From assembly GCA_002067205.1 (NCBI GenBank), contig MVQL01000164.1, positions 42,046 through 66,045 on the forward strand: 24,000 nt of DNA, written 5' to 3'. Made by a program: the position numbers and the translations under genes. Every line of letters starts with the position of its first letter. Position 1 is the first letter of the stretch. Below are positions 8,545 to 23,755 of the stretch, piece by piece. Source of the stretch: Pelotomaculum sp. PtaB.Bin104 (GTDB lineage Bacteria; Bacillota; Desulfotomaculia; Desulfotomaculales; Pelotomaculaceae). The notes beneath the pieces were generated by a model. That model worked only from the letters and a program-made list of their open reading frames with translations. It was not told the origin of the DNA and did not search any database.

Positions 8545-9052
8545 TTTATCCACCCTCCCAAAAGCTCAACAGAGACCTCAGGCTAAGCGTTTCCGGAATA
8601 TAAACAAGCCGTCCAGTTGAATGGGCGGCTTATAGAAAATAACAAGATATTAACAATAATTAATTCCCGCATTGCCGTTTTGCTTATCGTTTTTTAAAAC
8701 CAATTCTCAAAAATCGGCACCCGGCTAATCACATCTGCCTTCCTTTTAATTGAAAAGGCCTGGCATTTGGCAACTAGACCAAGGTTCCCTTGTCATAATT
8801 ATAGGTTTAAAAACTAACAAGGTATACTAACAAAGCAGGAATCTTTATTTCTGAAGCTTTATTGTATTATAGCACCCGGCTTAAGCTTATGCAAGTATCA
8901 CCCTGCCCACAGTGTGTGTTGATCACAAGGTACTTTAGCTCATGTCACAAGAACAAATACAGAGATACACAATCATTGTGGAATCTCAGCCTTGCTAGTA
9001 GCCGGCGCATGAATTCTTATGGTATTTATGTAAAATCTATTCACGTTTCCTG

Positions 9053-13188: not shown

Positions 13189-14097
13189 CTATTTCTTTCT
13201 CTTCTTAATAAATAATTCTACCCCAATCCAGCCCACAATCAGTATTCCGGCAATAATAGTCAAATAATTAGTCCAGAAAAAACCGCTTTGCGGACTAGCA
13301 GAGGCCGCGGATTCTTCTTTTTTTTCTGCAGAAGCAGCTGCCTGGTCAGTATCGGAGCTGCCAACCGCCTGCTGCCCGGCAGCATCGGTGGACTGCTGCT
13401 CTTCTGTATTCCCCGCAGATTCGGTACTGCCGCCTATACTTCCAGCACTGTCACTGGCGCCTGGTTGTACAGTTGCGACGACCGAAGCCTGATCAGCGTT
13501 GCCACCCTCACGGGATGAATCTGCCGGAGCCTGGCTTTCATCATGTGTCACCGGCGCAGGATCCTGCCCGGTAGCTTGCGCGGCTCCCTCGGTTTTAAAA
13601 GTTATGGTGATCTCTTGCCCTGCACTGGTGCCGCCAAGGGTAGATACCCCATTCTTAGCTTTCAGATCTGGAGAAATCTTTAAAGTATAAGACGTCCCCG
13701 GCTTGAGCGGAGCAGCAGGCTGAACAAATATGTGGTGACGGTTACTGAAATCGATGGTATCATCGATCTTGGTTACGGTTAAAGGTACACTCTCATTCCC
13801 CTGATCGAACAGGCTAAAACACTTGCGGTTAATTCCCCAAATCGTACTGTTGACCACGTTTTTATCGAATATCAGCTTAAATTTCGGCTCACCTGCTGGA
13901 ATGTTAACTGCATTCGACACATTCTTCCCGCTGTCCATTAAGCTTATGGATACAAAACTGAGGGGTTTCTGTCCGGGTATGCCTGAAGAGTCCGCATTTT
14001 CCCCACCCTGGGCTAAAGCAACCGGGGTAACCAGCAACATAGACAGGATTACAACGCACCAAAATAAAATGAACTTTAATTTACTGGAAAACGACAA
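13189..14097 (-). CDS. cell-surface protein: signal peptide, Ig-like (SbsA/Big_5-type) domain, acidic low-complexity linker, C-terminal TM anchor
   Basis: TTG start with AAGGGTG 7 nt upstream. Signal peptide KLKFILFWCVVILSMLLVTPVALA/QG. Beta-rich domain ending in PLKPGTSYTLKISPDLKAKNG. About 110 aa of S/A/Q/D/E-rich linker. C-terminal helix IIAGILIVGWIGVELFI followed by KKRKK. Confidence 0.8.
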   Translation of the reverse strand: MSFSSKLKFILFWCVVILSMLLVTPVALAQGGENADSSGIPGQKPLSFVSISLMDSGKNVSNAVNIPAGEPKFKLIFDKNVVNSTIWGINRKCFSLFDQGNESVPLTVTKIDDTIDFSNRHHIFVQPAAPLKPGTSYTLKISPDLKAKNGVSTLGGTSAGQEITITFKTEGAAQATGQDPAPVTHDESQAPADSSREGGNADQASVVATVQPGASDSAGSIGGSTESAGNTEEQQSTDAAGQQAVGSSDTDQAAASAEKKEESAASASPQSGFFWTNYLTIIAGILIVGWIGVELFIKKRKK

Positions 14098-14240
14098 GTA
14101 CCCACACCCTTTCCACTCTTACTAAAACGATAAAATGCAAAGGAATTCCTGCATACCGGTTCATTCGAAAATTATTTATGTTAGTTGTGGGTCATATTTT
14201 AATCAGTCAGTAATAATAGGAATTGATCAGCACATCTCAG

Positions 14241-15056
14241 CTAGATCAGGATAAACGACAGAGTAAAGGCAGACAGTATGAACGCTATCGACAGCCTATC
14301 TGCCAGCCTGTACTGAAGTCTGCTTAGTCTGGTCCTGTTCATACCCCCCGTATAGCATCTACTTTCCATAGCTATGGCAAGGTCGTTGGCCCGCTGCAGC
14401 GAAGCCGCCAATAACGGGATCAAAACCGCAGTAAAGCTTCGTAACCGGGTAATCACCTTGGGTGAGTTAAACTGGGCGCCGCGTGATCGCTGAGCCCTGG
14501 TCAGGGTTTCCGCCTCTTCAATGATAGTCGGGATAAAGCGCAGCGAGGTGCTAATCAGCATGGAAAGCTGGTGCACCGGAATCCTGGCATAGCGCAAGGG
14601 CGAAAGCAAAGACTCGATCCCTGAGGCCAGTCTCAGCGGAGAAGTAGTGGTGGTCAGTAAAATCGAGCTCATATACAGGATCATCAGGCGAAAGACAGTA
14701 GAAAGCCCCAAATTGACCCCTTCTCTGGTTATCTTAAAAACCCCTAGTTGAAATAACAGCTCACCCGTAGTTAGGGTAGCCTGAAAAATAAAGGACAGCA
14801 GTAAAATATACCTGAGCTTGCGCAGGCCGCGCAATATCTTTGCCGCTTTCACTCCTGAGAAATAGAAAGCGGCGGAGAGAATAGTTACATTTAAACAGAT
14901 CACATACCACTGGAAATTAATTAAGACGGAAAAAATAATTAATAGACAGCCGATGATTTTGGTCCTGGGATCGAGCCGGTGAATAATCGAGTTACCGAGG
15001 ACAAATTGTCCCATTTTCAAGCCCTGATCCTGATTTTTTCTCATTTTTCTTCTCAT
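14241..15056 (-). CDS. ecfT: ECF transporter transmembrane (T) component
   Basis: IHRLDPRTKI near the N-terminus and the two Arg-containing coupling helices (SPLRLASGIESLL..., ...AQRSRGA) are typical of EcfT/CbiQ. ATGA overlap with the upstream ATPase gene. An internal start at MGQFVLG is possible. Confidence 0.9.
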   Translation of the reverse strand: MRRKMRKNQDQGLKMGQFVLGNSIIHRLDPRTKIIGCLLIIFSVLINFQWYVICLNVTILSAAFYFSGVKAAKILRGLRKLRYILLLSFIFQATLTTGELLFQLGVFKITREGVNLGLSTVFRLMILYMSSILLTTTTSPLRLASGIESLLSPLRYARIPVHQLSMLISTSLRFIPTIIEEAETLTRAQRSRGAQFNSPKVITRLRSFTAVLIPLLAASLQRANDLAIAMESRCYTGGMNRTRLSRLQYRLADRLSIAFILSAFTLSFILI

Positions 15057-15901
15057 TCCAGCAGCCTCCTGATCTCCCGTTCAGCTTCAGCCAAAGTAAC
15101 AACTCCAGTGTTGACTTTTTGCCCTCGCGCTGCTAGATCATACATCAGTTGCAGGTAGTCGGGCAGCAGAATGTCGGGCAGTTCCCGAAAATCTTTGCGG
15201 GACAAAATTTCTTTCGGGGTCCCGGCAGCCACCAGAGACCCTCCGTCCAAGACCGCCATCCGCCCGGTTAGGTTGATAATATCCCTGATACTATGTGAGA
15301 TCATGATCACCGTTACACCATATTCCTGCTGCAACCTTTGGAGCAACTGCAAAATCATGTCCCGCCCCGCGGGATCGAGTCCGGCTGCCGGTTCGTCCAG
15401 TACCAGGATTTCCGGTCGGATTGCCAGAACCCCGGCGATGGCGACACGCCGGCGCAGTCCACCGCTCAGGCAAATTGGCGGCTGCGCCGCTACTTCGTCA
15501 GGCTCAAGACCGACAAGCCGCAAGGCCTCAATTACCCGCTTTTCGATTTCCTGTTTATCCAAGCCGAGATTTCTGGGGCCATAGGAGACATCTTCAAAGA
15601 CGGTGCTTTCAAAAAGCTGCTGCTCCGGATACTGAAAGACCATGCCCACTTTCTTCCAAAGGGTGCGGGCATATTGCTCGTCCATAGTATCTTTACCGCC
15701 GACCAACACCTGTCCTTCCCCTGGCGTGAGAAGGCCGTTAAATTGCTGCACCAGGGTCGTCTTGCCGGAGCCGTTCGCCCCCACGATGCCAAAAAAATCA
15801 CCTTTCTGTACGGAAAGGTTGATGCCGTTTAGGGCCTTTTTCTCATAGGGGGTACCCGGGTTGTAAGTATAGCTTAGATTTTTCACTTCTATGATTGACA
15901 T
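15053..15901 (-). CDS. ecfA2: ECF transporter ATPase component (second of pair)
   Basis: Walker A GANGSGKTT, signature LSGGLRRRVAIAG, Walker B ILVLDEPAAGLD, H-loop ISHS. The start overlaps the ecfA1 stop by 13 nt. Confidence 0.9.
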   Translation of the reverse strand: MSIIEVKNLSYTYNPGTPYEKKALNGINLSVQKGDFFGIVGANGSGKTTLVQQFNGLLTPGEGQVLVGGKDTMDEQYARTLWKKVGMVFQYPEQQLFESTVFEDVSYGPRNLGLDKQEIEKRVIEALRLVGLEPDEVAAQPPICLSGGLRRRVAIAGVLAIRPEILVLDEPAAGLDPAGRDMILQLLQRLQQEYGVTVIMISHSIRDIINLTGRMAVLDGGSLVAAGTPKEILSRKDFRELPDILLPDYLQLMYDLAARGQKVNTGVVTLAEAEREIRRLLE

Positions 15902-16743
15902 AAGTATTCCACCATTTTTGGCACAGTGATGATATTTCGGTCAATCTGGAAGCCGCTTCTTCTTAAATTTTCCGCAAGTTGCACGATTTCGGGAGGCCTT
16001 AAGCCGGCTGCGGCCAATTGTTCCGATGCTGTAAAAACCTCCGCGGGCGTACCGGTCATGTAAATACCCCCCTGGTGCAGCACTACTATTCGGTCAGCTC
16101 CGACAACATCCTCCATATTATGAGAAATTAATATCACAGTAATGTTGTACTCTTGATTGAGAGCAGTCAAAATTTCACCCAACTCACGCCTGCCCCTAGG
16201 GTCAAGCATGGAGGTCGGCTCATCCAGAACCAGGTGAGACGGGCGCATGGCTAGTGCGCAGGCAATGGCCACTTTTTGTTTCTGGCCGCCGGAAAGCATA
16301 TGTGGCGCGTGCTGGCGCAGTTCCGTCAGCCCGACCGCCTGCAGGGACCATTCGACACGCTCGCTGATTTCCGCGCGGGAAAGCCCCAGGTTCTCAGGCC
16401 CAAAAGCGATATCCTCCTCCACTATGGAGCTGATAATCTGATTGTCGGGATTTTGAAACACCATCCCCACCTGGCGTCTGATCTCGATTAGAGACCTGCT
16501 AGCGGCAGTGTCAAGGCCGTTAACATAGACCTTGCCCGCCGTCGGCTTAATTAGGCCGTTGACCAGCCTGGCCAGGGTTGATTTTCCCGAACCGTTCATT
16601 CCTAAAAGGCCGACAAATTCCCCCTGTCTGACCGTCAAGCTGACGTCGTTGAGGGCAATTTTACTTAAAGGTTGTCCCACATTAAATTCCTTGGTAACAT
16701 TGACCAGCTCAATGCTGCCTTCAAACATAAGGGTTGTGTCCAC
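15889..16743 (-). CDS. ecfA1: ECF transporter ATPase component (first of pair)
   Basis: Walker A GMNGSGKST, Q-loop, signature LSGGQKQKVAIACAL, Walker B HLVLDEPTSMLD, H-loop ISHN. Start uncertain: GTG at 16743 abuts the GGGAG, and the alternative ATG at 16728 gives MFEGSIELVNV. Confidence 0.9.
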   Translation of the reverse strand: MDTTLMFEGSIELVNVTKEFNVGQPLSKIALNDVSLTVRQGEFVGLLGMNGSGKSTLARLVNGLIKPTAGKVYVNGLDTAASRSLIEIRRQVGMVFQNPDNQIISSIVEEDIAFGPENLGLSRAEISERVEWSLQAVGLTELRQHAPHMLSGGQKQKVAIACALAMRPSHLVLDEPTSMLDPRGRRELGEILTALNQEYNITVILISHNMEDVVGADRIVVLHQGGIYMTGTPAEVFTASEQLAAAGLRPPEIVQLAENLRRSGFQIDRNIITVPKMVEYLCQS

Positions 16744-19266: not shown

Positions 19267-21270
19267 TTATATGCTTGTGCTAATTTCCAATATCTCTGAG
19301 ATATCCATTACTTTTATGTTTTTTTCATGTGCATCTACCGGTGTGTCTTTAGCGAAGGCCGTCAGACAATACGGGCAAGCCGTACAGACCACCTCCGCTC
19401 CACTTGCGGCGGCTTCAACAATACGGTTATTAGTGATTTGGTTGTTTGTTTTAACCTTGGTCCAAGCCCGGCCCCCCCCGGCGCCGCAACAAAAAGAACT
19501 GTTTCTGGAGCGGGCCATTTCGATCAGCCGGACGCTGGGAATGGCCGTTAAAACTTCCCTGGGCTCGTTAAAGGTTTCATTGTAGCGGCCAAGATAACAG
19601 GGATCATGGTAGGTGATGGTTTTATCAAGGTTTTTAACAGGCCTTAGTCTCCCCTTTTTCAATAGTTCGGCCAGAAAGACAGAGTGGTGATTGACATTGT
19701 ATGCTGCGCCAAACTGGGGATACTCATTATTCAAGGTATTGAAACAATGCGGACAGGCAGTTATGATTTTTTTGACCCCCTTATTGTTCCAGGCAGATAT
19801 GTTATTCTGAACAATTTTTTGGTAAAGTCGTTCATCCCCCATTCGGCGTGCTGCTTCCCCACAACACCACTGGTCATTTCCCAAAACAGCAAAATCAACT
19901 CCGGCCCTCTTAAGAACCTCGATCATGGCTTTGGTGGTTTTCCTGGCCTGCTCGTCAAATAAACCGGCACAGCCAACAAAATAAAAATATTCTGCGCTTG
20001 GGTGATTATCCAGGGTCGGCACCTCTAATTTCCTGATCCAATCATAAGCGGCATCAGGGTCTAAACCCCAGGGGTTGCCTTGATGTTCTATACCGGTACA
20101 CACCTTCCTCACTTCTTCTGGAACGTTCTGCTGTGCAGATATAATGTAACGGCGCATTTCGAATAGTCTGGCTGTGTGCTCGATAGAAATCGGGCAGATT
20201 TCCACGCATGCCCCGCAGGTGGTACAGTTCCAGATAAACTCGTCTTCAAAAACATCTCCAGTGATGTTTTTCTTTAGTACTTTCCGCTCTGTTTCAGTAG
20301 CTTTTTTGTATCGCGAAGCTTGCGGTAACGCACTGTACTTCATTAGAACAGGCGCCTTTTGGTCTATATGCTTGCGCAGGCGCCCGTTGAACCGCTTTGG
20401 TTTATGCTGTTCACCGCTCTGGTGAGAGGGACAATGTTCATCACAGCGGCCGCATTTGACACAGGCATAGGCGTCAAACAATTGCTTCCAGGTAAAGTCC
20501 TCCAAATTATTGGCTCCAATAGAAACCTCTTCCCCATCCAATTCAATCTTCCTGATCGCTCCTTTTGGCTCGAGCTTATGCCAGTAGGTATTAAAGGGAG
20601 CAAAAACCAGGTGCAGGTGCTTGGAGCGCGGTATGATAAAGAATAAAGCAAACACAGCCAAAAAGTGCGACCAAAAGAAAATGGTGCCCACTCTTTCCAT
20701 GCTGTTTCTATCCATGTTACCTAACCAGCCGGCAATAGCGGCCGCTAAAGGGGCAAACCCGGCCGGGACGTCGTTTTCGCCCAGGGCGATTTGGACCCCG
20801 TGAAACGAAGCCTCAGAAATGATAATGATTAGGATTAACAAAATAATTACGAATGCGATCGGAGTGTTTTTAAGCCACTGTGGCTTAAAAATTGTTCTGC
20901 GCAGAAGTAAACCAACACACGCAACTATGATAAAAATAGCAAATACATCTTTTATCAACAGGTAAACCAGATTATCGCCAATATAGGGAATTCTGGTAGA
21001 AAACAGGCCTTCCGCAACCATGTTCACCATGCCTGCCAGCAGAAACAAAAACCCCCATAGGATAAACCAGTGTAAAACCCCAAAGAGAGGCTTTTGCATT
21101 ATTCTCTTATGGCACAACAACTGGGAGAAAAAATAAATTAGCCGCCTGCCGGGATGGTCTGAACGATCTTCCGGCCTGCCCAGCTTGGTGTAAAGGTAGC
21201 GCCTGTAAACCTCGTAGAAGAAAAACCCTCCGGAAATAATTAATAGGGCAAAAAAAATAATTGCTTCCAT
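19267..21270 (-). CDS. membrane-bound Fe-S oxidoreductase: N-terminal multi-TM (NarI/DsrM-like) domain fused to an HdrD/DsrK-like module with 2x[4Fe-4S] motifs and two CCG domains
   Basis: Start moved to MEAIIFFALL.. (ATG 21270), with GGAGG 8 nt upstream. About 6 TM helices. Ferredoxin motifs CVKCGRCDEHCP and CTTCGACVEICP. Cys-rich CCG-type repeats: VGCAG...WCCGEA...CPHC, then HDPCYLGR...FCCGAGGG...CPYC. Confidence 0.9.
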   Translation of the reverse strand: MEAIIFFALLIISGGFFFYEVYRRYLYTKLGRPEDRSDHPGRRLIYFFSQLLCHKRIMQKPLFGVLHWFILWGFLFLLAGMVNMVAEGLFSTRIPYIGDNLVYLLIKDVFAIFIIVACVGLLLRRTIFKPQWLKNTPIAFVIILLILIIIISEASFHGVQIALGENDVPAGFAPLAAAIAGWLGNMDRNSMERVGTIFFWSHFLAVFALFFIIPRSKHLHLVFAPFNTYWHKLEPKGAIRKIELDGEEVSIGANNLEDFTWKQLFDAYACVKCGRCDEHCPSHQSGEQHKPKRFNGRLRKHIDQKAPVLMKYSALPQASRYKKATETERKVLKKNITGDVFEDEFIWNCTTCGACVEICPISIEHTARLFEMRRYIISAQQNVPEEVRKVCTGIEHQGNPWGLDPDAAYDWIRKLEVPTLDNHPSAEYFYFVGCAGLFDEQARKTTKAMIEVLKRAGVDFAVLGNDQWCCGEAARRMGDERLYQKIVQNNISAWNNKGVKKIITACPHCFNTLNNEYPQFGAAYNVNHHSVFLAELLKKGRLRPVKNLDKTITYHDPCYLGRYNETFNEPREVLTAIPSVRLIEMARSRNSSFCCGAGGGRAWTKVKTNNQITNNRIVEAAASGAEVVCTACPYCLTAFAKDTPVDAHEKNIKVMDISEILEISTSI

Positions 21271-21392
21271 ATTGCCTGCCTCCTGCATATCCAACGAAAA
21301 CACCTGGGGAATATATCCGTTGTTCATCCGGTCACATCAACTCTATCTGAGATCTAGCGTTATTTTCGTAAAAACAAGTCTTAAAATATAAT

Positions 21393-21429: not shown

Positions 21430-22434
21430 CATAGCCTTCAAGCCCAGCTCTCCTTTTCGTAATGGAAGGCACACTTGTTTCCCGGTGTACCCTGTCGTCC
21501 AACAACCATAGCGATATGCTTTAGGTAAGTTTGGATCGGAGAGATAATTTGTATCTTATTCGTATTTTTTTCGACTATCATAGAGCAAATTCCTGCAATA
21601 AAATCTTGGAAACTTAAAAATATTACTTTTGTGTAAACTGCATGCCGAAATGTTTGATAATTAAAAACACTATTAACAACTAAAATAACCATTATTTACT
21701 TAGAGGTGATATCCAACATTAGTAGAACCATTTTTAGCAACAAAGGAGGTGTATTGGAAGCCGGTGATGCGGCCGGTAACTGGAGCACCAACGGTCCATG
21801 TAAAACCGTGATCACACCGTTTAAAAAATCATACATGCAATTTTATCAATTCAAATACTGGGAAAGACCCTTGCGTTTTATTGACATTTTGTTCAAATAG
21901 AAAAGCTGAATTACATCTTTGTGCGATCACCTAAATTGATCTAACAGATCGCGATGAATTAGATAGACTTATGCATAATAAGCTCACATTTATATATATA
22001 TGCTCCCATTAAGGTAGACAGTTAATATAAAAAACTGTGTGCCGAAAGGGGAGCATTTTCTATGCCACAAAAGAGTAAAGTACTATTCATAAAAATATAT
22101 AAAACCTATTCATAATTGTTTTTTAATTTATCAACTGCTCTTTTTAACTTATGATGAAATTACGGTTAAGGATAGTTACACTGAATTGGGATATGCCAAA
22201 ATCGAGTTATTGCTCAAAAAGCTCGAAGGTGGAAGGTTGGAAAATAAGGTTGGGCTACTCAGTGAGTTCCTCCATTTCAGAATAATGCGATATTCCTGAG
22301 GTTTGAAACGAATCGTGTCATTCATATGGACTGGTAAAATTCGCAAAAGATTACTTGTAACATAGGTAAACTAGTAAGAAAATCAGACCTCAAAACCTGT
22401 CACCTTTTCGGTGGTTTTTTTTGTCTATTTTGTA

Positions 22435-22462
22435 ACATTTTATGGAATACGAACATAATGTA
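22435..22462 (+). promoter_or_regulatory. weak match to a sigma-K-type (late mother-cell) promoter upstream of the first paralog
   Basis: AC (22435-22436), 17-nt spacer, CATAatgTA (22454-22462), ~40 nt upstream of the start codon. This is a low-information consensus in AT-rich DNA, so chance is a real possibility. Confidence 0.25.
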
Positions 22463-22502
22463 CTTGTGAATTGCTTCTAAATCTTTAAGGAGGATGTCGT
22501 TT

Positions 22503-23009
22503 GTGAAAGAGAAATTTTGTATTGACATTTTAAAATGCATTAAATCTGGAGTAGAGGATATTGAAGCCAAACTGGATGACCCGAAAACCGGGTTGGCAGA
22601 AATCAAGCAGGAGATCAAGGATATCGAAAAAAGACTGGATAAGATGGACGACAAGAAAGACGATAAAAAGGACGAAAATATCATGTGGGTGCTTAAAGGT
22701 AAGAAAAAGAGATTCACTGTCCCCTGTGTTGGTAACGTAACGATAATTACGGAATTTCAATATGTATTTGTAGGACGGCTTGTACCAGATAAAGACGACT
22801 GCTGTGACCACGACGGGCGTAAGGAATTAGATGATTTCATCACCCTAACACTAACAGCTCCCCTTTTAGCTGTATCAGGAAACGGCGAAGCTATATTAGA
22901 ACAACCATATTATGTGGAAGGCGACACAGTGCTCATTAATATCGATCAAATTAATACTATCGGCCCCGCAAATCCTCCTTTCACGGCAATGTCATTAACT
23001 ATAAGCTAG
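22503..23009 (+). CDS. unknown-family protein, paralog 1: charged coiled-coil N-terminal module plus a ~85-aa C-terminal domain shared with the next gene
   Basis: The ORF-track ATG at 22494 lies 1 nt after AAGGAGG. The in-frame GTG at 22503 is 10 nt after it and is preferred. N-terminal part: EDIEAKLDDPKTGLAEIKQEIKDIEKRLDKMDDKKDDKKDE. C-terminal domain: CVGNVTIITEF..GRL...LTLTAPLL...YYVEGDTVLINIDQINTIGPAN. Confidence 0.8.
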   Translation: MKEKFCIDILKCIKSGVEDIEAKLDDPKTGLAEIKQEIKDIEKRLDKMDDKKDDKKDENIMWVLKGKKKRFTVPCVGNVTIITEFQYVFVGRLVPDKDDCCDHDGRKELDDFITLTLTAPLLAVSGNGEAILEQPYYVEGDTVLINIDQINTIGPANPPFTAMSLTIS

Positions 23010-23031
23010 ATAAGCAATGATGTAGCAGTTA

Positions 23032-23105
23032 TTGACGCCAAAGAGGCAAACCGAACACCGTGTTTACAGAAATCAAGAGACCGTCAGTCATTTGGATAAG
23101 GAAGA
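23032..23105 (+). repeat. decayed, untranslatable copy of the paralog-1 N-terminal (coiled-coil) coding segment
   Basis: 23032-23078 (ATTGACGCCAAAGAGGCAAACCGAACACCGTGTTTACAGAAATCAAG) aligns with 22560-22607 (ATTGAAGCCAAACTGGATGACCCGAAAACCGGGTTGGCAGAAATCAAG). About 36 of 48 positions are identical by hand, with one 1-nt indel. TGGATAAG recurs at 23094 versus 22636. The remnant has stops and frame breaks. Confidence 0.6.
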
Positions 23106-23163
23106 TCATCGGGAGATATATCATAATTAGACTAAATAATATATGTGAAGGAGTTAATAAGTT

Positions 23164-23433
23164 ATGTTTGATTTTAATGAAATCTGTGTTGGAAACGTAA
23201 CGGTGCTCATGGCAAATCAGCTAGTATTAACTGGACGTATTTCGAGGCATCCTGTGAAAGTTGATGATGAGGACTTTTTCGTCCTAACACTAACTGCACC
23301 CCTCTTAATAGAACCAGGTAATAAGGGTCCTGCACCAGAACTGCCATTTTATGTAGTAGGGGACACAGTTAAAATTAATGAAGATAATGTTATTAGTATC
23401 GGCCCCGCGAACATAACTAACGGCGGCGTCTAA
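23164..23433 (+). CDS. unknown-family protein, paralog 2 (C-terminal domain only)
   Basis: ATG with GAAGGAG 10 nt upstream. 89 aa. Hand alignment to paralog 1 gives 38 identical of 76 aligned residues (CVGNVT, GR, LTLTAPLL, GDTV.IN, IGPAN) with one 7-residue gap. A hairpin terminator follows. Confidence 0.8.
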   Translation: MFDFNEICVGNVTVLMANQLVLTGRISRHPVKVDDEDFFVLTLTAPLLIEPGNKGPAPELPFYVVGDTVKINEDNVISIGPANITNGGV

Positions 23434-23453
23434 AACTAGTATATTATTTAACA

Positions 23454-23483
23454 AATAACGAGGCTTAAACAAGCCTCGTTATT
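23454..23483 (+). terminator. hairpin terminator after the paralog pair
   Basis: AATAACGAGGCTT-AAAC-AAGCCTCGTTATT, a perfect 13-bp stem starting 21 nt after the stop. The U-tract is weak (GTTGGCT), so termination efficiency is uncertain. Confidence 0.55.
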
Positions 23484-23603
23484 GTTGGCTCTGAAAGAGG
23501 TAAACGAGTAATTAATTTAGGAACTTATTAGAAGAAGCATTTACTTAATATGAGCGGAGTCCCCCAAACCAAAGCACCGTGTAAATTATTATTTTCCATG
23601 ATA

Positions 23604-23647
23604 AAAAGGAAGGTTCAACAAAGCTTGCCCGGCTGAACCTTCCTTTT
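23604..23647 (-). terminator. intrinsic terminator of the SLH-domain gene
   Basis: AAAGGAAGGTTCA (23605-23617) pairs with TGAACCTTCCTTT (23634-23646), a 13-14 bp stem with a 16-nt loop. On the minus strand it runs into TTTTTATCA. It is ~110 nt downstream of the stop at 23756. Confidence 0.65.
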
Positions 23648-23755
23648 GTTGATTCTTTTATTGTGCGACCATTCTATCAGTAATAATTTATTTCAACGCG
23701 TTAACAATTATTGTGTCATCAACATTCTCAAATTTTCCGGCACATCAGATTATTT

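Follow-up and report, generated by a model that had tools for sequence, protein, structure and literature searches.

Tandem paralogues with a predicted Sm-like fold in Pelotomaculum: a rare protein family and a candidate sigma-K-type operon for putative spore-envelope proteins

Sm, LSm and Hfq proteins are built on a strongly bent five-strand beta-barrel of about 70-80 residues, and distinct LSm paralogues come together in hetero-heptameric rings. Ena1A and Ena1B (DUF3992) are small tandem paralogues, made in sporulation, whose Cys-bearing N-terminal tails link the subunits into very stable fibres on the spore surface. Spores also contain small, lineage-specific sigma-K-dependent coat and exosporium proteins, including the Cys-rich CotY, CotZ, ExsY and CdeC types. 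The mnx operon, known for the spore Mn(II) oxidase of Bacillus sp. PL-12, reportedly has a sigma-K-like promoter. Two of its products, the small adjacent paralogues MnxE and MnxF, which have no known homologues, form an alternating hexamer (MnxE3F3) that is part of this exosporium enzyme (PMC5622069). Here we describe two tandem genes, gene 1 and gene 2, near the end of a 24,000-nucleotide (nt) stretch of DNA from Pelotomaculum sp. PtaB.Bin104 (contig MVQL01000164.1), the whole of which is called the window, and compare them with these systems. We give an even chance to the reading that they constitute a bicistronic operon, expressed in the mother cell late in sporulation, for acidic, oligomerising proteins of the spore coat or exosporium.

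Both open reading frames (ORFs) lie on the + strand, at 22494-23009 (171 amino acids, aa) and 23164-23433 (89 aa), and these coordinates are confirmed in the window. Gene 1 most likely starts at GTG 22503 and not at ATG 22494, judging from three sequence comparisons: the ATG leaves no space after the Shine-Dalgarno sequence AAGGAGG, the GTG is the start chosen in the public gene call (168 aa), and the orthologue of Pelotomaculum propionicicum has an ATG start at the equivalent position and spacing. The features of the locus are as follows.

22399..22415, + strand: terminator-like hairpin followed by a T8 run, from a consensus scan (weak 6-base-pair stem, pattern match only)
22435..22462, + strand: sigma-K-type promoter, with -35 AC (22435-22436), a 17-nt spacer and -10 CATAATGTA (22454-22462), by sequence match only
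22487..22493, + strand: Shine-Dalgarno sequence AAGGAGG of gene 1, read from the sequence, 9 nt before GTG 22503 and 0 nt before ATG 22494
22494..23009, + strand: gene 1, with hairpin module, linker and Sm-like domain; 171 aa from ATG 22494, more likely 168 aa from GTG 22503
22506..22652, + strand: predicted helical hairpin of gene 1, with helices at residues 2-24 and 31-50 of the 168-aa form and the turn DDPKTG (AlphaFold; predicted local distance difference test, pLDDT, 80-91)
22653..22733, + strand: Lys/Asp-rich linker of gene 1 (KMDDKKDDKKDE...), of low confidence (pLDDT 46-54) and predicted to be disordered
22734..22967, + strand: predicted Sm-like beta-barrel domain of gene 1, from AlphaFold, Foldseek and BLASTP, with a CCDHD loop between strands
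23147..23153, + strand: Shine-Dalgarno sequence GAAGGAG of gene 2, read from the sequence
23164..23433, + strand: gene 2, 89 aa, essentially a bare Sm-like domain
23448..23488, + strand: hairpin after gene 2 (ViennaRNA, 18 paired positions, -20.8 kcal/mol), without a clean T-run and missed by the consensus scan

The initial annotation, made from the letters alone, saw a tandem pair of paralogues here, and BLASTP agrees: all of gene 2 aligns with the C-terminal half of gene 1 with 39/83 residues identical (47%, E 2e-20; 38/76 had been counted by hand), which defines a common domain of about 85 aa. The conserved blocks that had been listed (CVGNVT, GR, LTLTAP LL, YYV.GDTV.IN and IGPAN) are all present. 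The proposal that the duplication was recent has to be given up. Window gene 2 shares 55-58% identity with gene 2 of the P. propionicicum lineage versus 43% with window gene 1, and window gene 1 shares 45-50% with gene 1 of that lineage versus 33-38% with their gene 2, so that each window gene is closer to its orthologues than to its tandem partner. Because gene-1 and gene-2 orthologues group separately across lineages in this identity matrix, the duplication is, on these sequences, an old one that took place before the split of the lineages. Near-identical patches of nucleotides, on which the proposal was based, do occur; they are short, with a longest exact run of 12 nt (CCTAACACTAAC) and an overall identity of 62% over 240 aligned nt. 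Gene conversion, which had been offered as the other explanation, has left a weak residue: 23 identical residues of the window pair use the same codon versus 16±3 expected (z 2.4). This excess also exists in the pair of the closest relative, the sister lineage L004, and is absent from orthologue comparisons at similar divergence. Short, occasional gene conversion between the tandem copies may have made a minor contribution. In lineage L002 (1215-1838) identity between the two paralogues is 72-78%, they have a long stretch (FIRLTLTAPVLFIPATGGPAVEQPFY) in common, and the shared-codon excess is z 3.1. These features point to gene conversion more recent than in the window.

The sigma-K consensus consists of -35 AC and -10 CATAnnnTA, and in Clostridioides difficile, as in Bacillus subtilis, it is at -35 that the promoters of sigma-K differ from those of sigma-E, with AC versus ATA (PMC3789822). 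With this consensus and a spacer of 16-17 nt as the criterion, AC-N17-CATAATGTA is an exact match, located 32-40 nt upstream of the start of gene 1; the window holds two full matches on both strands together, this one included. The -10 element CATAnnnTA is found 26-53 nt ahead of the start codon of gene 1, or of the only gene where there is no pair, in 6/9 independent lineages. L011 (Anaerosinus massiliensis), L019 and L022 are among them, so that distant relatives with a single gene are covered too, and two further lineages have it with one mismatch. By comparison, 2/102 control ORFs of the same loci (>=100 aa) carry it at the same position, and one of these two is a Gly/Pro/Phe-rich ORF adjoining the pair in P. 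propionicicum. No -10 motif occurs upstream of gene 2 in any lineage. Gene 2 is probably co-transcribed with gene 1, since the 154-nt spacer between them contains neither a promoter motif nor a strong hairpin. Judged by pattern match, the terminator-like site at 22399..22415 may close off transcription from upstream, and the hairpin at 23448..23488 is the likely end of the two-gene transcript. The simplest reading of this arrangement would be a two-gene sigma-K-type transcription unit.

The shared domain finds no match in Pfam-A (models up to 2025), NCBIfam 20.0, PHROGs or PADLOC when both proteins are scanned; a Pfam scan of 44 family members likewise yields none for the domain, and a profile search of PDB sequences (E<=10) returns chance matches only (E>=0.2). 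The earlier statement that the family is an unrecognised one is thereby borne out. Matches that do appear are weak and concern the N-terminus of gene 1 only: sub-threshold coiled-coil hits (FlaC_arch, E 0.004, below the cut-off) and, for its hairpin motif, PHROG families without an assigned function and coiled-coil families, XhlA and P10 among them. Homologues do exist elsewhere, and every source that names family members annotates them as hypothetical. Word-indexed searches with the single proteins recover 4 + 1 relatives among 5.8 billion proteins, and it takes an exhaustive hidden Markov model search of 1.84 billion cluster representatives to reveal the family: 134 proteins at E<=1e-3, in two classes. 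Class (a) comprises about 37 small proteins (89-186 aa, plus one fusion of 557 aa) that match the shared domain. A follow-up profile search brings 72 proteins, and the shared-domain family amounts to about 40 clusters at 50% identity among the representatives. On the strength of these searches the family is real but rare, and previously undescribed. In the 557-aa fusion (P0039, from a metagenome) the Sm-like domain is followed by a long C-terminal part, a putative HExxH protease, which contains an HEFQH motif and weakly matches DUF2268 (predicted Zn protease).

Across the family the signature reads C-x-G-x-V-T ... G-[RQ] ... F-[IV]-x-L-x-L ... G-D-x-[IV]-x-I-N ... I-G-P. The close, Pelotomaculum-type subfamily is recognised by CxGxVT..TGR...F..LTLTAP.L..PG..G....QPFYV.GD....IGP, and a Cys-rich subfamily of single genes, with members in Negativicutes, in Anaerosinus massiliensis and in metagenome-assembled genomes (MAGs) of Bacillota, by DCVGAVT..FQGQI...EFI.LEL.CD....GD.VRINV..I.A.GPS.GC. 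Cys is conserved at three positions: one in the N-terminal tail and two further ones in the Cys-rich subfamily. The proteins are acidic, with a median isoelectric point (pI) of 4.5 and a pI >7 in 2/67 members; their N-termini are hydrophilic without a hydrophobic leader, and neither protein of the window has a signal peptide by reading of the sequence. Inserts and linkers of the relatives are His-rich. All 6 close-subfamily lineages with readable flanking DNA have the tandem pair (the window; L004/L005; L001/L007/L014, including P. propionicicum C1; L002/L003; L006; L013). In orthologues at 45-78% identity the frame is preserved and the two genes remain side by side, which speaks for purifying selection. 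P. propionicicum is the only named genome with the pair; other genomes that carry the family are Bacillota MAGs or that of A. massiliensis. A metagenome contig scan with a narrower alignment gives a single locus. The genome scan used a short pattern, so that the distribution is a lower bound.

For the structure, single chains were modelled by AlphaFold, gene 2 with AlphaFold2 on an alignment of 67 sequences. The model of gene 2 has five to six strands (mean pLDDT 79.4, predicted template modelling score 0.68), and that of gene 1 (pLDDT 77.5) places a barrel at residues 78-155 of the 168-aa form. When the gene 2 model is compared with the PDB by Foldseek, the top 50 matches are nearly all Sm/LSm chains, at E about 1e-2; the gene 1 model, too, matches Sm/LSm chains best, at E values from 1.4e-3. 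Template modelling (TM) scores to Sm/LSm range from 0.45 to 0.59 by query and reach 0.74 by target (E 1e-3 to 4e-2). At rank 8 for gene 2 stands 9bxa_B, chain B of the Mnx complex of Bacillus sp. PL-12, with a TM score of 0.45. A fold search of the viral structure library BFVD returns generic small barrels only. The core of about 85 aa is therefore predicted to be an Sm-like, strongly bent five-strand beta-barrel of about 70-80 residues, and the small beta-barrel first suspected from the alternation of hydrophobic residues finds support in the models of both proteins and in their fold matches.

Gene 1 carries, in addition, the charged N-terminus that had been called heptad-like. The charge is there; the models describe the region better as a hairpin module (helix-turn-helix) joined to a disordered Lys/Asp linker, whose length differs among orthologues. 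Gene 1 has this long extension in two lineages only, window/L004 and P. propionicicum, and is without it in L002 and L013. The hairpin contains, as a single copy in the window, the motif D.P..GL.EIK.EI..IE..LD (22575-22607, + strand). This motif connects gene 1 with class (b) of the exhaustive search, about 95 larger proteins (roughly 90-1300 aa) that match only its N-terminal ~40 residues. They repeat D.P.FGL.EIK.EI..IE.KLD two to eight times before an unrelated C-terminal domain, and the curated libraries return generic coiled coils only for them. Examples are P0009, P0010, P0012, P0015, P0016 and P0023, with some from Tepidanaerobacteraceae and Thermovorax. A C-terminal domain common among them (…TTGPV..DN..NS.V..V.N…) has no library match. 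Class (b) looks like a second unnamed family, possibly fibrous.

Taken together, these data suggest the following scenario for the spore. Sigma-K RNA polymerase would transcribe the pair late in sporulation in the mother cell, with the transcription start expected about 7 nt downstream of CATATAGTA. The two acidic Sm-fold paralogues would co-assemble into small, probably mixed, rings or other oligomers, as the analogy with Sm/LSm/Hfq rings and with MnxE3F3 suggests; the assembly into rings and into heteromers is the least secure part of the model. These oligomers would then be deposited in the outer layers of the spore, coat or exosporium. The hairpin of gene 1, on its flexible Lys/Asp tether, is homologous to the repeat unit of larger, probably fibrous, proteins and could plausibly dock the oligomer onto such proteins. 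The conserved N-terminal Cys, together with the further Cys of the single-gene subfamily, could cross-link subunits or bind metal. It could even be imagined that Cys-cross-linked, mixed gene 1/gene 2 Sm rings tile or nucleate part of the coat or exosporium of anaerobic Firmicutes, with the hairpin plugging the rings into multi-hairpin-repeat fibres, and that the family is thus a class of spore-surface building block not recognised before. This elaboration we regard as rather doubtful. If it were true, the Sm ring, classically an RNA-binding scaffold, would be a structural element of the endospore envelope, and two uncharacterised protein families would be joined in one assembly system.

In several respects the pair resembles the small sigma-K-dependent coat and exosporium proteins: its genes are small, stand-alone and of low GC content, they have a mother-cell-type promoter motif and no signal peptide, and one subfamily is Cys-rich. 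The difference is that neither Coat_F nor any other curated family of coat or small spore proteins in Pfam and NCBIfam gives a profile match, and that a place in the spore is something we infer. With Ena1A and Ena1B the present family has in common a conserved Cys in a flexible N-terminal tail. It differs from them in that Pfam reports no DUF3992 match and the predicted fold is an Sm-like barrel versus the Ena jellyroll; fibres are known for Ena and not for the present family. P. propionicicum is a spore-former (PMC6776889). The first impression that the proteins recall those of the spore coat thus gains independent support from the conserved sigma-K-type motif and from a spore-forming host, with localisation in the spore being the conjectural part.

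Several observations weigh against a role in the spore. The promoter is a consensus match only, its -35 element has just two bases, and the P. propionicicum lineage shows GC in place of AC. Spore formation was checked for one host only, most members coming from metagenome contigs. The Foldseek E-values are weak (1e-3 to 1e-2), with TM scores by query of at most 0.6, and a conserved loop of 24 residues between strands 3 and 4 (TAPLL..PGN.GPA.E.PFYV.GD) is without a counterpart in Sm proteins. Finally, neighbours are not conserved, so that context is of little help, and in two lineages the pair lies near surface-protein genes of vegetative type (SLH; Big_5/Fn3).

Among the other explanations, one could think of the two proteins as accessory metal-binding or redox subunits of a larger enzyme, to which a mixed hexamer would deliver metal or electrons, in the way that MnxE and MnxF serve MnxG. 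MnxE and MnxF are likewise small tandem paralogues for which no homologues were known (PMC5622069), and an MnxE/F chain, 9bxa_B, is among the top fold matches. Cys, His and Asp abound in the loops, as in CCDHD of gene 1, the inserts and linkers of relatives are His-rich, and the single-gene subfamily has its three conserved Cys. Against this, neither a multicopper oxidase of the MnxG type nor any other conserved enzyme partner is encoded beside the genes in the window or in the relatives' neighbourhoods, about 10 lineages having been examined; the profile search of PDB sequences (E<=10) yields no Mnx chain, and the TM score to 9bxa_B is a low one. The hosts, moreover, are anaerobic Desulfotomaculia and Negativicutes versus a marine Bacillus. 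Because the loci have neither a multicopper oxidase nor sequence similarity to Mnx, the relation is, as far as the comparison goes, one of analogy and not of membership, and an enzyme-accessory function seems improbable to us.

Proteins of the vegetative cell envelope or S-layer, acting with neighbouring SLH, Big_5 or Fn3 surface proteins, would account for the setting of the pair. As the initial annotation noted, the genes lie in an AT-rich island beside an SLH gene: their own GC content is 0.40-0.41 and that of the stretch 21554-23755 is 0.36, versus 0.50 on average in 14 large window ORFs, and the neighbour on the opposite strand (23756->24000, - strand) has an SLH domain (Pfam E 6.5e-15). 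Upstream, a remnant of an Fn3-repeat surface-protein gene (21700-21816, + strand; …AGDAAGNWSTNGP…) is located in an otherwise empty gap of 940 nt with 33% GC. It matches the Fn3-repeat protein beside the pair of L013, a related metagenome contig (tblastn E 2e-6), where the two genes are found between two Big_5-like genes. In L013 (26-4839, compared with window 13189-16743) the pair directly follows an ECF (energy-coupling factor) transporter/Big_5-like block, and in the window about 8 kb separate the pair from the orthologues of this block (43% identity for the Big_5 protein). This points to a local rearrangement. The linkage is restricted to these two related lineages, and judged from the common ECF-Big_5 gene order it is synteny shared by descent; other lineages have unrelated neighbours. 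Furthermore, the sequences of the two proteins contain no signal peptide, no transmembrane segment and no SLH domain, and the promoter motif is of sporulation type and not of sigma-70 type. A function in the vegetative envelope is therefore quite improbable in our opinion.

Neighbours differ among the loci, as is typical for stand-alone genes. A few of them hint at sporulation. In P. propionicicum C1 (L007) a two-domain DUF3231/Coat_F-like gene (L007 6061-7107, - strand) adjoins the pair, and beside it is also the Gly/Pro/Phe-rich repeat ORF (GPGFGPGF…; L007 5311-5745, + strand) with its upstream CATAnnnTA. Together with the pair, these genes may represent a small coat-type gene cluster. A Spo0E-like gene is located close by in L019, and a gene for a CBO0543-family membrane protein flanks the pair in L014. 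The idea of a pair of precursors of ribosomally synthesised and post-translationally modified peptides, raised by a radical-SAM gene 2.5 kb away in L014, was rejected, since neither the window nor the other lineages have that gene.

The fold itself brings up RNA-binding chaperones of the Hfq/LSm kind, possibly specific for sporulation. Sm/LSm chains dominate the top 50 fold matches of both models, the barrel has the bend, the five strands and the size of the Sm fold in the predicted structures, and distinct paralogues recall the hetero-heptameric LSm rings. Sequence similarity, however, is not detectable: profiles of LSM and Hfq, which rest on the Sm1/Sm2 motifs, do not recognise the pair, and no LSM or Hfq match appears in Pfam for the two proteins at E<=10 or for 44 members at E<=1. 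An Arg-Gly in loop 5 is typical of the Sm2 motif in Sm proteins, and the present family has I-N-x-D/N in its place. Its strong acidity, too, is unlike an RNA-binding character. The gene 2 model has no canonical Sm N-terminal helix before strand 1, and the helices of gene 1 belong to a separate hairpin module attached by a disordered linker. The long loop between strands 3 and 4 and the conserved Cys of the N-terminal tail are additional differences from Sm, LSm and Hfq. On balance, RNA chaperones are very unlikely.

That the genes are ORFs decaying in a low-GC island, or cargo of a phage or mobile element such as an accessory for lysis or structure, is hardly credible: low local GC, an integrase fragment and insertion sequence element near one distant homologue, a toxin-antitoxin pair near another and the weak hairpin-motif matches to PHROG families, XhlA and P10 stand against two intact ORFs with good ribosome-binding sites, signs of purifying selection, chromosomal conservation across a clade, and a domain that has no match in PHROG or PADLOC and no relative in 2.9 million viral contigs scanned with two profiles. 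As these viral contig scans were empty, a phage origin was dropped.

A few other elements of the window deserve mention. An antisense ORF (22400-22717, - strand, 105 aa, Ser/Leu/Phe-rich) overlaps gene 1. It is the mirror image of the Lys/Asp/Glu-rich coding strand of gene 1 and almost certainly not a gene. In the 940-nt gap upstream of the pair, Rfam recognises only a Moco (molybdenum/tungsten-cofactor) riboswitch (21434-21553, - strand; 62 bits, E 5e-13), which belongs to the opposite gene. It is directly upstream of a gene (19267-21327, - strand) for an HdrD/DsrK-like membrane protein of 686 aa with 4Fe-4S and two CCG domains, and this suggests Moco-dependent control of that redox protein. 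A full-length 6S (SsrS) RNA gene is located at 8660-8844 (- strand; 65.7 bits).

In anaerobic non-model Firmicutes, for example syntrophic Pelotomaculum or the Negativicutes, spore coats have hardly been charted, and homology to Bacillus or Clostridioides proteins fails to reveal most of the components. Our finding defines a compact family without a Pfam or NCBIfam model, a promoter signal, and a second, uncharacterised hairpin-repeat module. On present evidence this is a new family with a known type of fold, and no categorically new kind of system. Should the role in the spore envelope not be confirmed, the pair would still be a clean case for a new domain-of-unknown-function entry. If it is confirmed, Sm-type rings would, alongside MnxE/F, extend beyond RNA biology, and these genes would provide markers for late mother-cell expression in such groups.

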